The position numbers and the translations under genes were made by a program. The notes beneath the pieces are model-generated. The model was not told the origin of the DNA. It made no database searches and was given only the letters and a program-made list of their open reading frames with translations. A stretch of DNA of 64,000 bases from Haliotis rufescens (lineage: Eukaryota): positions 65,844,001 through 65,908,000 of the forward strand of contig NW_025963890.1 in assembly GCF_023055435.1 (NCBI RefSeq), written 5' to 3'. Of this stretch, positions 31,901 to 62,596 are shown piece by piece (position 1 is the first letter of the stretch; each line of letters opens with the position of its first letter).

Positions 31901-34900
31901 GTAAGCCACTGATCCCGTTAGTCACCTCTTACAACAAGCATAGTCGCTTTTTACAGCAAGCATGGGTTGCTGAAGACCTATTCTTCCCCTGATCTTCACA
32001 TTCGATAGAAATAGGCCCTGATTGTTCTTCAAAAGCACATGATTAAGGGATAACAAACTGGTGTGGTTCTAGCCTCTGAGTTCACCTTGTGATTGCATGC
32101 ATGTCATGAGGTACTGGGCTGGAGCGCAGTGACATCATCTCCTCCTCAGAACACTGACTGTGGTAGGACAACACCTCCAGTGCCACCTTGTACTTCTGTT
32201 CTGACCGCCGAATCTTCTCATACAGCTGTGAATAAGAACATCAACTGATCTTAGTACGAGTGGAGCAGTTGAATGCGATAACTCCCAGGGTGCTGTTGTA
32301 CAAAACAACCTTAGCGTCAAGATTGCCGTAAGTCTATGTTAAGGTATGGGAGTTACGATCACCTTTGCTCTAAGATCGCTTTGTACAACGGCACCCTGAT
32401 CAACACAAATCACTTTGGATTTTGTTCTGTTATGTTAAGAAAACATATTTTTTTATATAAATATAAAGACTTCAAGTATTCCATTTGTATTCAGGATGAA
32501 GATGCATTATAAGTCAAGTCAGGGGAAAAATAACATGTTCAAACTTCCATCACCACTGACATCAAATTGAAAATATCAACATCAAGCCTTCCTTCACTCC
32601 TCCCTTCACTTTCCCAGTCCTTCCGTCACTCTTTTCCAAGTCCTTTTACATTTACCCAGTTCTTCCTTCACTTGCTCACTCCTCAACTTCTCAAGTTACC
32701 AACACTGTACTTTTGTTAAGTTTGCTAATGCCCTAATTCCGTTTCATTCACTGATTCCCTTCGTCTGTCATCCTTCACTCAATCACACTCCCTTCCGCTG
32801 CTCAGCCTCCCACGTCAACCATTACCTTTGCGTGATGCAGTGCCAGGCCACAGTAGATAGCAAAGGTCTCAAAGGCTTCCTCATCTGCCCTAGTGAATGG
32901 TCCACTCATCTTGTTGACCATCTGAACCACTCCGATGATGCTGAAACACCCACCATGCATCACTCAACTGGGGTGGATTAACCAGGTAACCTGACACTCA
33001 ATATACAGGCGACAGCTATCTCGGACATACTGAACACCAAAAAGGTTTTGAGTATTTTGATAGATCGTATATTGTTTCAAATTTTTATGTCGATGTCAAA
33101 AACACCATCAGTCATAAAGAGTGAGAGAAACATTCCAGCTTAATCGCAACAACCTGTTAACAATTATGTCTGGGGCAGACAAACCAATGGTTGATTGCAT
33201 GAGCCCCGATCAATATCATCTGGGTATGTTGAGACACAATCAGCAATAGCAACACACTGTAAACACCTGATTCTCATTAAAGTTGGTTCTTACAACAAGC
33301 ATGGGGTACTGGTGAACTATTGACCAATAACTCTTAGCTCAGTTGGTACATTTGGTTAAACATATCTTGATACACAGTTCTACAGATTACACAGAATCGA
33401 TCTGATTAGTTAGAGAAAAAATAAGTTATAACTACAAGTAATGTTTTCATGTCCGTCAGCAAAATAGACCGTCTCGGAAGTGGGTATTTTAAAAACTGAC
33501 ATTGCATTGATGAAAAGAACAGAATTCAATACCTGTAACAAGATATTTCAGTTGATAGAGACAATAGGATTCAAAGAAAGATGGTTTGGGGTACCCTCCT
33601 TTCTGTGGTACTGATTTGAAGGGACTTACTTCCCCCTGATGTAGATGGGCATACACAGTATGCTCTTGGTCCTGTAGCCAGTCTGTAGGTCTACGTCGCG
33701 GTTAAACCGGATGTCCCCATAGGCATCCTGGATGTTGAGAACCTCCCCAGTGGTGGCGACGTGGCCAGCCACGCCTTTGCCCATGGGGAATCTACATGCA
33801 GTAATATAGATCAGGTGTAAGAAAATGTACACCTCAGAAAGATTATATTTGAGACAAGCATTTTACTTGAAAACGATGAAAGACTAGAGATATTCAGTTT
33901 TTAAGAAATTTATCAAATCCATGAACAAGGCTTTAGTACCTTACTGACAGACCAAGGTTCATGACTGGGGCTATTTGGAGCTTCAATCTCATGATCATTG
34001 GATGCATAAAGTGCATGTGAAAAAGATCTGACTAAACCGTCCACTCACAAAATCAATCTTTGAACACACTCAATACCTCTGAGGTTTACTTACCATACTA
34101 GATCTCTAATCCCTGTGTCATGTGTAATCTGTCATACTTTCTTGGGCTTAACATCATCAACTTATGGGTGGTAATTCAAGCAAATGTGCACATGTTCCTG
34201 TTACACTTGACAGCAATGCGTCATTAACATACGTGACACTATCAGCAGCAGACCAGCCCATGTTTCAACTTTGATATATTTATGGGACCTGGGGGGGCAT
34301 GGGTGGCCCAGTCGCCTAAGGCGGTGCGATTCGCTGTGCAGAGTTGCATCCCTTGGGCACTCAAGAAACCTATGATTGTGGGTTCAAATCACGATTCTCC
34401 CCGATTATGTTTCTAGGTTTGTCAGCACCATATCTGTGCTCACGGGTTTCACCGAAGTGGTAAATGTCTGAGACCTGCATCACTTTGAGCTTTCCTCCCA
34501 CATTAAGCTGACACGCCGCGATATAACTGGAATACTTTTTAAAGCGGTGTTAAACCAAACTCATTAACTCACTCACTTATGGGACCTGGGTGCAACCTGG
34601 TTTTGTTTGGTCCAACTTGGTTTTCATGTCAACATGCATGTGGTGCAAGTTAAATCAAGTTCCTTAAATCGACCCTGCATATATTTGCAAATTTGAACAT
34701 ACTTGCATTGCAAGAACTGAACGAGAATGGCCTGGCATATTACCATATGATGCATACCCATCCCATGTCGGTGCTGCAGGGTCATTCACTATACATGTTC
34801 ACAGCAGTCAAATTCACCCATTTCCTTTTCCAGTGGGTTTAAGGCTCCTATTTTAGCCATGTCCTGGCATGGATAAGCTTACTGAGAGAGGAGAGGCCAC

Positions 34901-37900
34901 TTGAGACATTTTACAGGCATACATCCTGAATCAGACACAACTGATTTGGGGGATTTCTGCCTCCATTTTAACTTCGCAGTATAAGCAGACACATGAGAAA
35001 ACATTACATGGGGACATTTGATGGATGTTGGAACCTGATTTAGTTCCTCTGTGTTCAGTAATGCAGCTAATATTATGATAATTTCAGTAAAGATCCAACC
35101 TTATTTCTTTCTGTGGTACATTTTCTTCACACTTTCCAGTATCAAATATTCGGGAGAAGAGTTCCTTGGTGCGGGAGTCGAGCATAAATAATGATGCCCG
35201 ATCGGCATGCACAAGAGTTTTTGCAAAATTCTGCCAGAGGAAAAAGTTACCAAAACTTAAGTTATTTGACTTGAAATTGATGGAAATAACTAAATTCAAA
35301 AGTAGGCTAGAGACAACTGAACATAATCAGAGGAGGTAGCAAATAAGTTAAGGGCAAGACAACAAGCACACTAGACTATGGTTACCACAAACACTGGTGC
35401 AAACTCTTGTACAGGGAGTAGGCCTAGGGTTTCTGAAGATACAGTACAAGCTATGGATTGACTAAGGACAGCGCCATCTGGCTTGACTAAGGACAGCGCC
35501 ATCTGGCTTGACTAAGGACAGCGCCATCTACCACAATCATCCACACGCCAAGGCTACAAGCATGTTCAGTATCTAAAGCATGGGTTACTGGGTTTGTCAA
35601 ACATAAATGCACACAAATTAAGCTGATATCATTTGCACAAATGATATAATGAGTATGAAATATTTATATGGAAAAATATCTCAATGTAGTTTCAGAATCA
35701 AGAGCATGAGGATATACTTTAGTCATTTGATCAAATTCATTTTAATTTTTGAAAGGCAGAAAAGATTTGTGCCAATGAATCCTGTCAGTGGAGCTCTGGG
35801 ACTTTAATGTCTTTGTTGAGATTCAGTCGAAGCACCAAATGGTAGAACTTGGCTTACATATAAACAAGATAACAGCACAAATGTAAGGACAAAATGGATT
35901 ATTATCACTACAAAAAGACAATCAAATACTGATCACAAAAGAGGCTTTTTAAAAAAACAACATATGTCAAAGCAGCTGTAGGAACAAATGTTAACAGCAA
36001 TATGACATACAGCTGTAAGTTTTGGAAGTTAGGTCAGACCGTTTAAAAGTCATTGTTTTACAATCAACCTCAGTACTTTGATACATGTTACTTTTGTAAT
36101 ATGGAGGGCATATTTATCTGTAAATCAAGAAAGAAACTGTCCTTCATTTCAAAAGATGGAATCGTACTACAAGATGTTGAAGTGCCAGATGTCCACTGAT
36201 GCACTGGGCTGACCCAGTCACTCTAACCTGATTTCTTTCTGCTGACTACTTTCAGGTGAAGGAACACCCATAGTGCTCCCGACGTCAAAAATACGTGCAA
36301 ATAACTCCTGCCGGTGGTGATCCAATAGGAACAGTGAAGCTCGATCCGCATTCACCAACTTTTGTGCAAAATTCTGTCACAACGGAACAAAATTGGGAAT
36401 ACTACAGGGTAAGAAAATAAAGCAAACCAACAAGGGGTGATTGATAAGTTCTCAGCCTCACATAGAAAGAATTATTCACAATCCATAGTCCTCTTCTACA
36501 TTGATACACTTTTGCCCATGATGTTGGAGTTTCACAGACGTCCTTTGGCTGTCCAAAAAGCTATAGAGTCAAAATGGGTTCCGGATAGAGCTTTCTTCAT
36601 GTTTGGGAACAGATTGAAGTCTGATGGAGCCAGATCAGGAGAATGAGTTGGGTGCTGAAGGAGTTTAAAGCAACACTCGTGAATTGTACCCACTGGCTTG
36701 TGCACTTGCCCATTGTCCTGGGGGAAGAGCACACGATTTCTCAGTTTTCCATGTTTCTTAGTCTCAATTTCATCCCATAATTGCCTCATAAGTCCAGCAT
36801 AATATGCTCCATTTATTGTCTGGCCCTTTGGAAGATCCACCATGAAGACACCTTTGAACACAGGAGGCCATCTTTCCTGGTCATGAGACAGTCTTTGCCT
36901 TCTTTGGTGGTGGTGATGTCAAATCCTGCCACTATTTAGAATCTTGTTAGAACCGAGGGATCATTGATTGTCACAAATCGTTGAAAGAACCTTTCTGGTC
37001 AGCTTCAAACATAGCTAAATCACCACAAGACATGGTGTGAATGGTTGCATATTTGATCAGTTGACGCAAGTTATTCTAGATATACCCCTCTGACATCATG
37101 TCGCTTAGACATTTGTCCACAAGAAACGATTTCCCCATTGTTCAAATCCTTCTATGTGAGGCTCAGAGCTTATCAGTCAACCCTTGTATAAGCATGAGTG
37201 TCTAACATCCTAGAGTTGTGATTGTACCACAAAATAATCATTTGATTCAATAAGCCTTGGTAATTGAGGAAATGGGACTAAGGACATGAATATCATGTTC
37301 AGAGTTTGCTGAATTGATTTCTGTCAGCTGTATCTCAGGCTTAATGTCTTGCAGCTGTACTGCTATGACGCTGTAGCTCACCTGCTGACATTTACTTAAA
37401 GTCATGTGAACATCTTTAATGATAAACAAGTCACATACGCTAAATATTTAAAAACGAATGTGCTATTATTAACGTTTCATAAAAAGTAACAAATTTAACC
37501 TGCTCATCAAGTTTCAATCCCAATGGCAGCAGAAATACCAAAATTTGAATCATCGTCAAAGTAAAGATGCAATCAAAGTGAAACAATATTTCAAATGACT
37601 GACTGCATGGTACTCAGATGTCAAATCTAATTTACTTTACTTCAATGATGGTAACTGAATAGTCAAAGGGTTTTTAATATAACTGCCATTTTGAATACTT
37701 TATGAAAAACACCTGATCCAATTCAGGTACTATCCTTTGAATGAGTATTGTTTCACACTCTCCTTAGAAGTGTTCCAGCAATATCATGGTGGAGAAAAAC
37801 CAGAAAGGAGCTACACACATCTAACCATGTGGGACATCGAGCCCAGGCATTTGGTGTGATCAGTGATTGCATTAAACCACTAGGTTATCTTATCGCCCAT

Positions 37901-57769: not shown

Positions 57770-58332
57770 GATAGTGCAGTGAGATAGTGATTAAGTGTGT
57801 GTGCATGACAGTGTGCGTGTTAGTGTGGGTGTGTATGTGTGAATGCATATGTGTGTGGGTGTGGAATCAAACCTGAGTTGTTGGCATGACGAAGCAAGGC
57901 TTTAACCACTCACCCACCCCACCGCCTCTTAGATGAATATGAAACATGGGACATTCTCCAAGCTTGCTCACCTGGAACATACTTATATCAAGCACCTGCA
58001 TGACAAACTCAGTACAGTAGAAAGTGAGCAAATCAAATTATTGGCTCACAATTTCCTTATCAACTGGAGTGTGCAAACTCATGTAGCCAGGGGCTAATAC
58101 AGTCATACAGGCTGACGAGATCTGACAGCTAACTAGGTGCCCTTTAATCAGACAGACAGGCTGGATAGACTCATAGGGGGTAGGGAGTGAGGGGTGCGGC
58201 ACCTCAGTCATATTTGTGATACTTAGTGTAGAATGTATGTCTATTTGTGAGCTGGGGTGGGGCACAGTCAGGTCATGTATTGGCACATGTTGCACAGATA
58301 GTCTGGACTACCCTGTGCTCAATAGGTTACAT

Positions 58333-61300
58333 GATGAACAGACAATGAAATTATAACATACAGACAGTGGACAGACAATACAGTGATGATATACAGACAG
58401 TGGACAGACAATACAGTGATAACATACAGACAGTGGACAGACAATACAGTGATAACATACAGACAGTGGACAGACAATACAGTGATGATATACAGACAGT
58501 GGACAGACAATACAGTGATGATATACAGACAGTGGACAGACAATACAGTGATGATATACAGACAGTGGACAGACAATACAGTGATGATATACAGACAATG
58601 GACAGACAATACAGTGATAACATACAGATAGTGGACAGACAATACAGTGATAATATACAGACAGTGGACAGACAATACAGTGATAATATACAGACTGTGG
58701 ACAGACAATACAGTGATAACATACAGATAGTGGACAGACAATACAGTGATAATATACAGACAGTGGACAGACAATACAGTGATAACATACAGACAGTGGA
58801 CAGACAATACAGTGATGATATACAGACAGTGGACAGACAATACAGTGATAACATACAGACAGTGGACAGACAATACAGCGATAATATACAGACAGTGGAC
58901 AGACAATACAGTGATGATATACAGACAGTGGACAGACAATACAGTGATGATATACAGACAGTGGACAGACAATACAGTGATGATATACAGACAGTGGACA
59001 GACAATGAAGTTATAATATACAGACAGTGGACAGACAATACAGTGATAACATACAGACAGTGGACAGACAATACAGTGATAACATACAGACAGTGGACAG
59101 ACAATACAGTGATAACATACAGACAGTGGACAGACAATACAGTGATGATATACAGGCAGTGGACAGACAATACAGTGATAATATACAGACAGTGGACAGA
59201 CAATACAGTGATGATATACAGACAGTGGACAGACAATACAGTGATGATATACAGGCAGTGGACAGACAATACAGTGATAATATACAGACAGTGGACAGAC
59301 AATACAGTGATGATATACAGACAGTGGACAGACAATACAGTGATGATATACAGACAATACAGTGATAACATACAGATAGTGGACAGGCAATACAGTGATA
59401 ATATACAGACAGTGGACAGACAATACAGTGATAATATACAGACAGTGGACAGACAATACAGTGATGATATACAGACAGTGGACAGACAATGCAGTGATGA
59501 TATACAGACAGTGGACAGACAATACAGTGATAACATACAGACAGTGGACAGACAATACAGTGATGATATACAGACAGTGGACAGACAATACAGTGATAAT
59601 ATACAGACAGTGGACAGACAATACAGTGATGATATACAGACAGTGGACAGACAATGCAGTGATGATATACAGACAGTGGACAGACAATACAGTGATAACA
59701 TACAGACAGTGGACAGACAATACAGTGATGATATACAGACAGTGGACAGACAATACAGTGATAATATACAGACAGTGGACAGACAATACAGTGATGATAT
59801 ACAGACAGTGGACAGACAATACAGTGATAACATACAGACAGTGAACAGACAATACAGTGATGATATACAGACAGTGGACAGACAATACAGTGATAATATA
59901 CAGACAGTGGACAGACGATACAGTGATGATATACAGACAGTGGACAGACAATACAGTGATGATATACAGACAGTGGACAGACAATACAGTGATAACATAC
60001 AGACAGTGGACAGACAATACAGTGATGATATACAGACAGTGGATACAATACAGTGATGATATACAGACAGTGGACAGACAATACAGTGATTATGTACAGA
60101 CAGTGGACAGACAATACAGTGATAATATACAGACAGTGGACAGACAATACAGTGATGATATACAGACAGTGGACAGACAATACAGTGATAACATACAGAC
60201 AGTGGACAGACAATACAGTGATAACATACAGACAGTGGACAGACAATACAGTGATAACATACAGACAGTGGACAGACAATTACAGTGATAACATACAGAC
60301 AGTGGACAGACAATACAGTGATAACATACAGACAGTGGACAGACAATACAGTGATAATATACAGACAGTGGACAGACAATACAGTGATAATATACAGACA
60401 GTGGACAGACAATACAGTGATGATATACAGACAGTGGACAGACAATACAGTGATAACATACAGACAGTGGACAGACAATACAGTGATGATATACAGACAG
60501 TGGATACAATACAGTGATAATATACAGACAGTGGACAGACAATATAGTGATAATATACAGACAATGAACAGACGATACAGTGATAATATACAGACAGTGG
60601 ACAGACGATACAGTGATTATGTACAGACAGTGGACAGACAATACAGTGATAACATACAGACAGTGGACAGACAATACAGTGATAATATACAGACAGTGGA
60701 CAGACAATACAGTGATGATATACAGACAGTGGACAGACAATACAGTGATGATATACAGACAGTGGACAGACAATACAGTGATGATATACAGACAGTGGAC
60801 AGACAATACAGTGATGATATACAGACAGTGGACAGACAATACAGTGATAATATACAGACAGTGGACAGACAATACAGTGATGATATACAGACAGTGGACA
60901 GACAATACAGTGATGATATACAGACAGTGGACAGACAATACAGTGATGATATACAGACAGTGGACAGACGATACAGTGATTATGTACAGACAGTGGACAG
61001 ACAATACAGTGATGATATACAGACAGTGGACAGACAATACAGTGATGATATACAGACAGTGGACAGACAATACAGTGATGATATACAGACAGTGGACAGA
61101 CAATACAGTGATGATATACAGACAGTGGACAGACAATACAGTGATGATATACAGACAGTGGACAGACAATACAGTGATGATATACAGACAGTGGACAGAC
61201 GATACAGTGATTATGTACAGACAGTGGACAGACAATACAGTGATGATATACAGACAGTGGACAGACAATACAGTGATGATATACAGACAGTGGACAGACA

Positions 61301-61827
61301 ATACAGTGATGATATACAGACAGTGGACAGACAATACAGTGATGATATACAGACAGTGGACAGACAATTACAGTGATAACATACAGACAGTGAACAGACA
61401 ATACAGTGATAATATACAGACAGTGGACAGACAATACAGTGATAATATACAGACAGTGGACAGACAATACAGTGATGATGTACAGACAGTGGACAGACAA
61501 TACAGTGATAACATACAGACAGTGGACAGACAATACAGTGATGATATACAGACAGTGGACAGACAATTACAGTGATAACATACAGACAGTGAACAGACAA
61601 TACAGTGATAATATACAGACAGTGGACAGACAATACAGTGATAATATACAGACAGTGGACAGACAATACAGTGATGATGTACAGACAGTGGACAGACAAT
61701 ACAGTGATAACATACAGACAGTGGACAGACAATACAGTGATGATATACAGACAGTGGATACAATACAGTGATAATATACAGAAAGTGGACAGACAATATA
61801 GTGATAATATACAGACAATGAACAGAC
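58333..61827. repeat. 33-bp satellite, about 105 copies
   Basis: Unit gacagacaatacagtgatgatatacagacagtg; it explains all the long ORFs in this region. Confidence 0.98.
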
Positions 61828-62596
61828 AAAAGAGAAAGCTAACAGTGTTAAACACTGACTGTAACATAGTATGGTCTCTGGCAACTGCAAACATCAAAGA
61901 CCAGTGGAATTCTGGGGGTACGGCGATAGGTTGTTTGTCGTGAAAGGCGATCTGATGGAATATTGCTGAGTGCAGTGTTCAACAACCAACAAAACAAATC
62001 ACTCTACAAAGAACAGATACAACCCCTTCTGTATGATGTGAATATAAAGCATGAACGCCAGAGAATGACCAGTCTCTATTATCTGCCGAAACAGATTCCA
62101 TTTGGCATAAAAGACAATGCAGTGAAGATCATAAGACTGGATCACTGAAATTCAGTGATGGCACCAGGTGTTTGCAAAAAGTGTAAGCATACCTGCCCAA
62201 TCAGTACAATAGGCACCCTGCCACTAACACAATTGACCCGTGAAGATCCAGGGTAGAATAGGCCTTCAGCAAGACTGCTTGTCGTAAGAGGACACTAATG
62301 GGATCGGGTGGTCAGGCTCACTGACATGGTTGATGCATGTCATCGTATCCTCATGATAGATCTATGCTCATGATGTCAATCACAGGATTGTCTGGTCCAG
62401 TCTCAATTATTTACAGACTGCCCCCTTATAGTTGGAATATTTCTGAGTGCGGCGCTAAACAGACAAACAAACAAAACTAACACAATTTGCATAAAAAAGT
62501 GTTTGGTCGTTGCCTGACACCACAAAGCGGCTCTCCTGCTCGTCATGGTTGGTATATAGTCAGATGTAAACATTTTTCACCTCCGAACCAATGAAT

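Follow-up and report, generated by a model that had tools for sequence, protein, structure and literature searches.

Does the PDE10/pde-5 gene of the abalone Haliotis rufescens hold two interchangeable exons for the same part of its GAF-B domain, and what would choosing one over the other change in the enzyme? Both questions are raised by a 64,000-nt stretch of contig NW_025963890.1 (positions 65,844,001 to 65,908,000), hereafter the window, in which an initial annotation placed two homologous alternative GAF-B exons, E9a and E9b. The coordinates, AG–GT bounds and phase of both agree with that proposal (Table 1). The number in "E9" is a label kept from the initial annotation, as at least ten coding exon positions precede E9a within the window.

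Table 1. Positions in the window of the exons and sites discussed in the text
Feature	Position	Strand	Description
E8	40463-40412	minus	52 nt; upstream exon common to both forms
E9a	36373-36228	minus	146 nt; AG..GTTAGA bounds; alternative GAF-B exon; end of α2, β1-β2, 14-residue β2-β3 loop, start of β3; position 4 Gln, FD motif followed by Val; putative ancestral type
Intron E9a-E9b	36227-35231	minus	997 nt; unspliced contigs often lie over it
E9b	35230-35100	minus	131 nt; AG..GTTGGA bounds; alternative GAF-B exon; loop of 9 residues; position 4 Lys, FD motif followed by Thr; putative derived type
TAA in E9b	35103-35101	minus	Reached when E9a and E9b are both included
E10	33791-33630	minus	162 nt; downstream exon common to both forms; remaining GAF-B pocket
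GAF-A helix exon, first	44481-44431	minus	51 nt; last GAF-A helix; 9 of 11 H. rufescens models
GAF-A helix exon, second	42187-42137	minus	51 nt; alternative to 44481-44431; 2 of 11 models
Active-site exon, first	14315-14204	minus	112 nt; Tyr at the human Tyr693 position; 3 of 11 models
Active-site exon, second	12693-12582	minus	112 nt; Met at the human Tyr693 position; 8 of 11 models
Glu codon at the Gln726 position	9419-9417	minus	Last codon of exon 9497-9417

Identity of the gene

The E9a product is 100% identical to a Haliotis rufescens pde-5 protein, and the joined exons of the window are exact substrings of RefSeq models (e.g. XP_046355354.2 and XP_046355355.2, which differ from each other in this exon alone); no counterpart of residues 1–122 of the RefSeq model turned up in the 64-kb window. 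The protein matches PF01590 over two stretches and PF00233 with an E-value of 1e-78, giving two GAF domains followed by a class I phosphodiesterase (PDE) domain. The best solved match of GAF-B is 2zmf, the GAF-B domain of human PDE10A (E = 8.9e-49), which bears out its earlier assignment to the PDE10 type. Against catalytic-only chains, the catalytic domain scores 315 bits with PDE10A versus 255 bits with PDE5, and a fold search with the full-length predicted model confirmed the PDE fold and nothing further. The accessible part of a review names the nematode pde-5 as a PDE10 orthologue (PMC12346295). By descent we class the abalone gene as a PDE10 orthologue, without implying PDE10A-like behaviour of the enzyme, because the position of human Gln726 is occupied by glutamate.

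Two homologous exons for one segment of GAF-B

E9a and E9b have lengths that are both 2 mod 3 and follow E8 in the same phase, and E8 with either one of them and E10 gives an open frame. Joining both exons runs into the TAA at the end of E9b, as had been proposed, and joining neither, for which a frameshift had been proposed, leads to a stop within E10; both stops fall well upstream of the later junctions. Read-through past E9a is likewise halted after two codons. At the protein level, the two exons agree at 22 of the first 32 residues; at 15 of these the codons differ, as expected for an old duplication under protein-level constraint. An exon profile run over the window recovered the pair with E-values of 3.7e-26 and 1.4e-22, the next piece having an E-value of 3.5. 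These values and the codon pattern indicate that the similarity is not due to chance. The same profile search revealed no third copy in the 64-kb window. E9b DNA has one match in the genome, and a protein search with E9b alone as the query gave no match.

The motifs ADRASLF and RIFD.G are kept in both exons, and the loop before QKEIR comprises 12 residues in E9a and 7 (KCEENVP) in E9b, all as first described. The ligand-contacting segments cited at that time, ADRC and LFD, do lie in the exon; those spellings are human, however, and abalone reads ADRA and IFD in both copies.

Each of the 11 H. rufescens RefSeq models contains exactly one of the two exons (E9a in seven, E9b in four, both in none). 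These isoforms are automatic models that come without a description of exclusivity, age or function. The homology, the frames and the spliced contigs described below confirm E9a and E9b as tandem-duplicated, mutually exclusive exons of the Haliotis PDE10/pde-5 gene.

Splicing in assembled contigs

Twenty-four runs were listed, none from a holder recorded as RNA, and seven were examined as assembled contigs rather than raw reads, the 17 others including three small-RNA raw-read runs; contigs of this kind drop rare forms and give no ratios. In the repeat-poor stretch, X4 has an E9b contig whose loose ends match E8's end and E10's start exactly; the pieces listed for this run include no E9a cover, which is not proof of absence. 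E9a is joined to both E8 and E10 in X3 and X12 and to E8 in X7, and a single contig runs from E9a straight into E10 in both X1 and X13. The E9a piece listed for X2 continues into the intron. Spliced E9b (E8–E9b–E10) was found in one of the seven runs and the E9a–E10 joint in four; a missing spliced E9b is not proof of absence, and the listings of X1 and X13, dominated by repeats, cannot show that E9b is absent there. Each exon is accordingly seen spliced without the other (E9b in X4; E9a in X1, X3, X12 and X13), junction reads having been proposed earlier as a check. No E9a–E9b joint occurs in the repeat-poor stretch in any of the four runs X3, X4, X7 and X12.

For X1, X4 and X7 the organism and study codes agree and the sample codes differ, and because of this the contigs hint that exon choice is sample-dependent. 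The donor of E9b matches the consensus at five of nine positions versus seven of nine for E9a. Unspliced contigs cover much of 33792–36227, the introns after E9a, some of them running out of E9a itself. This cover possibly reflects slow splicing or retention in the cluster, or it could be plain pre-mRNA or DNA.

The pocket, the core and the loop

The predicted structures of the two forms show the same elements (the end of α2, β1, β2, the loop and the start of β3). Position 4 lies in model helix 339–354 and position 31 at the end of β2, and in both structures confidence is lowest in the loop. In the accessible portions of two papers, the human PDE10A GAF-B pocket is described as including Cys287, Asp305, Asn353 and Gln383 (PMC6151459) as well as Phe300 and Phe334 (PMC4833291). 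Alignment with 2zmf maps the Cys287, Phe300 and Asp305 positions into the exon, in keeping with the earlier view that the exon carries pocket residues, and the residues at these positions are the same in E9a and E9b. So are those at the positions of Arg286 and Phe304, which we take to be ligand contacts in human PDE10A GAF-B. The equivalents of Phe300, Phe334, Asp305, Asn353 and Gln383 are kept in abalone, and Cys287 is replaced by Ala in both exons. Because the two exons do not differ at any of the pocket positions mapped to them, the swap is unlikely to change ligand contacts directly.

The ten differences in the core of the segment are spread over α2 (three), β1 (one), the β1–β2 turn (four), β2 (one) and the residue following the Asp (one). 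The lengths of the a and b loops in six lineages are 14/9, 12/11, 18/57, 19/44, 13/14 and 13/13, so that the b loop is shorter in two, equal in one and longer in three, with an overall range of 7–57 residues. On this comparison, the loop-length difference between E9a and E9b is local to abalone. The Ser-Pro of the E9a loop is present in H. rufescens and H. cracherodii only; it is gone from H. asinina and from the a loops of the other five lineages with both types.

Age and distribution of the two types

Gene models of both types are present in H. rufescens, Patella vulgata, Biomphalaria, Physella, Lineus and Tubulanus, and the conservation proposed earlier as a check thus extends over six gastropod and nemertean lineages. 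One Biomphalaria pfeifferi model contains a then b in tandem, the same order as in abalone. All 120 bivalve models have b only, as do those of Gigantopelta and the bryozoan Watersipora, while a-type residues are found in cnidarian, deuterostome, ecdysozoan and Owenia models; these are counts of gene models, and a type missing from the models may still be present in a genome. E9b is missing from the two H. asinina and the two H. cracherodii models. Since single-type states of either a or b occur, bivalves having b alone and many animals a alone, neither copy appears indispensable.

Two positions distinguish the types in the lineages that have both. Position 4 is Q in six of six a segments and K in six of six b segments, and position 31 is V or I in all six a segments and T, D or N in all six b segments. 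The two sites are not obligately linked, as human PDE10A combines K with I and Ridgeia K with M. Mean core identity is 0.81 among a segments, 0.74 among b segments and 0.69 between a and b within a species. A tree places all 17 b rows on one side of a branch with support of 92/87, the a and b labels having been assigned from the same two diagnostic residues that support this b clade. When those two columns are removed, the clade breaks up into an arrangement that lacks resolution and has seven changes. The trees cover the taxa of a 37-name list, with a single Branchiostoma variant and without one fused Biomphalaria segment. A single old duplication is the simplest reading of these patterns, with convergence as the alternative. 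In that simplest reading, one duplication before the mollusc–nemertean split would have produced b from an older a. Nucella lapillus has two pde-5 genes (P0214 and P0236), one with an a-type and the other with a b-type model, possibly splice forms that were split after gene duplication.

How exclusive use may be enforced

Exclusivity might require no special device. Wrong combinations stop so far upstream of later junctions that transcripts with both exons or with neither would be expected to be removed by nonsense-mediated decay, and the choice between E9a and E9b may be tissue- or state-dependent. Comparison of region pairs with shuffles revealed no convincing pairing for a competing or docking RNA structure at E9a/E9b. 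Seven of the eight region pairs were equalled by shuffles and the eighth narrowly beat 12 of 12. The sole strong inverted repeat is formed by the ends of a transposon. Steric clash at the branch point appears unlikely from the intron sequence, because the AG-free zone before E9b measures only 25 nt within a 997-nt intron. RBFOX-type TGCATG motifs, of which four lie between E8 and E10 versus 0.44 per kb across the gene, are not clearly enriched.

What the exon swap may change

We give about even odds to the reading that the swap retunes activation of the enzyme by cAMP at GAF-B through second-shell residues, and not through pocket contacts or loop length. Gln or Lys in α2, combined with a hydrophobic or polar residue after the Asp305 equivalent, would alter the cAMP level needed for activation or the factor by which activity rises. 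We prefer such second-shell tuning because the kept differences lie next to the purine-side Asp and within the helix bundle behind the pocket floor. The allostery of human PDE10A has itself been disputed, and a 2009 paper by Matthiesen and Nielsen is said, on the strength of its title, to hold that GAF binding does not stimulate PDE10A. The accessible text of PMC4833291 assigns α2 to a three-helix bundle behind the floor of the GAF-B pocket, and reports that pocket changes in human PDE10A abolish stimulation by cAMP and leave basal activity untouched.

The same differences can be read in other ways. The pair could be exclusive and yet alter only the outer surface of the domain (partners, localisation or subunit packing), with cAMP sensing unchanged, a reading that we consider unlikely but worth keeping in view. 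It would fit the identity of the pocket residues, the location of four of the ten core differences in the β1–β2 turn, the 44–57 acidic, low-complexity residues reached by pond-snail b loops and the low confidence of the loops in both predicted structures. However, neither loop nor turn is conserved within a type across lineages, whereas the two non-loop positions are, and no partner is known. It is also rather doubtful that the two proteins are near-equivalent, the exons being retained either because splicing has become subfunctionalised between tissues or because expression is throttled through the decay of mis-joined and intron-retaining forms. The frequency of single-copy states of either type would agree with near-equivalence, as would the unspliced contigs over the E9a–E10 introns in the examined runs, the early stop on read-through past E9a, a Patella model (P0148) that ends just past its a exon, and the two Nucella genes, one modelled with each type. 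Against this, type-specific residues held in six of six dual lineages argue for differing constraints, and the intronic cover could come simply from pre-mRNA or DNA.

The initial annotation had offered a more direct explanation, in which the shorter b loop changes ligand affinity and the Ser/Pro-rich a loop acts as a phosphorylation switch. The loop begins two residues past the Asp305 equivalent, and β2–β3 loops help to close GAF pockets. Nevertheless, this explanation now looks improbable: loop length has no conserved direction over the six lineages and the loop is modelled poorly in both forms, so its length can hardly be a meaningful difference; the Ser-Pro is lost within the genus and in five other a loops, which undercuts a phosphorylation switch; and the human loop, at 13 residues, resembles neither exon. 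The idea that E9b is a degenerating duplicate or arose as an error of annotation is almost certainly wrong. Its absence from the H. asinina and H. cracherodii models, the lack of a spliced form in six of seven runs and its weaker donor would be compatible with decay, but E9b is spliced on both sides in X4, and this refutes the idea unless that contig is chimeric. E9b also retains an open frame in which 15 conserved residues differ by synonymous changes, and the b type recurs in other lineages, being modelled there more often than a.

Other duplicated exons and a catalytic substitution

Two further places in the gene carry duplicated exons (Table 1). The GAF-A helix pair does not disturb the frame, and two copies or none are included in some models of Patella, Mytilus, Tubulanus and Owenia; these exons may therefore not be strictly exclusive. 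The active-site pair is frame-incompatible, as the GAF-B pair is. Tyr693 is listed among the active-site residues of human PDE10A in the accessible text of PMC12571622, and two active-site variants are also found in bivalve, limpet, nemertean, Ptychodera and echinoderm models. Among the H. rufescens models, each GAF-B exon occurs with each active-site exon. An 18-nt cassette exon at about 29033–29016 (minus strand), between the GAF-B linker and the catalytic domain, is included in 8 of 11 H. rufescens models, and other species have variable inserts at this place. In Penaeus, models P0030 and P0198 show, downstream of GAF-B, another two homologous segments used as alternatives. In several phyla this gene appears liable to duplicate exons in tandem.

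In an ungapped alignment, human Gln726, an "invariant glutamine" in the accessible part of PMC13095499, corresponds to Glu in abalone, and Gly725 to Leu. Glu occupies this position in 32 of 32 named mollusc taxa listed, and the non-molluscs listed have Gln. Three of the 32, all oysters, have a Gln-bearing alternative exon besides the one with Glu. A profile search found no Gln-bearing second copy of exon 9497–9417 in the 64-kb window. The substrate preference of PDE10A is not transferable to the abalone enzyme because of these two substitutions, and Glu for Gln might shift the enzyme towards cGMP.

A more far-reaching proposal, and one that we think unlikely to be right in full, is that spiralian PDE10 is a splice-programmed enzyme family within one gene. 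Old switches in the GAF-B sensor, the GAF-A relay helix and the active site (2 × 2 × 2 in abalone) would be chosen per cell type to give differing cAMP thresholds and substrate preferences, on a molluscan core that, with Glu in place of Gln, would act as a cAMP-gated cGMP phosphodiesterase. If this were true, splicing would do the work of the separate PDE gene families of vertebrates.

Comparison with known systems

Mutually exclusive exons (MXEs) are recognised as adjacent homologous exons of similar length and the same frame that are used exclusively, according to the accessible text of Hatje et al. 2017 (PMC5740500). E9a and E9b resemble the clusters described there in being in the same phase, included one at a time, frameshifting when included jointly, coding for the same structural element and, apparently, being old. 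SCN exon 5a/5b and the myosin heavy chain and ATE1 clusters are further examples. Unlike in those clusters, the piece swapped in abalone is part of an allosteric cyclic-nucleotide sensor. The words "PDE" and "phosphodiesterase" are absent from the main text of PMC5740500, and its supplements may list PDE genes. The MXE mechanism is already known, and the H. rufescens isoforms are already modelled in RefSeq. We found no published description of the PDE10 exon pair in a search that covered mostly titles and the starts of abstracts, with subscription papers and the supplements of MXE surveys largely outside its scope.

Human PDE10A (2zmf; catalytic structures 2y0j, 2oun and 3lxg), also the best solved match of the catalytic domain, shares the tandem GAF and PDEase_I layout with the abalone protein, and the pocket residues R, F, F and D within the exon and F, A, F-N and Q downstream of it are kept between the two. 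The mammalian PDE10A splice variants described in the accessible part of PMC12571622 differ mainly at their ends, whereas abalone swaps internal exons at three places. C. elegans PDE-5 bears the same annotation family name and retains the catalytic Gln; it has one listed isoform, in contrast to the several of abalone, and nematode models have a-type GAF-B residues. The substrate specificity of C. elegans PDE-5 has never been evaluated, according to the available text of PMC12346295.

A natural GAF-B pair with the same pocket residues and few long-kept differences would provide a test of second-shell coupling between cAMP and PDE10. The step coupling cAMP binding to activation is broken by human chorea mutations, as stated in the accessible text of PMC4833291. 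The pair also adds a sensor-domain case to the MXEs of molluscs and nemerteans, some lineages keeping both types and others a alone or b alone. Compared with the loop, the active-site pair and the Gln-to-Glu substitution are the greater surprise, and they matter for how PDEs discriminate between cAMP and cGMP; the active-site pair is probably of more interest than the GAF-B pair.

Repeats in the window

A mariner-like remnant at 36430–37187, with 44-nt inverted ends that are 86% complementary, lies 57 nt upstream of the E9a acceptor. Its transposase fragment matches PF01359 below the cut-off (E = 1e-4). Three tandem copies of a 25-nt unit occupy 35454–35529, within the E9a–E9b intron, and one run of another organism code has a longer duplication at this place. 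A long low-complexity tandem repeat at about 58300–62000 contains spurious open frames of up to 765 codons.
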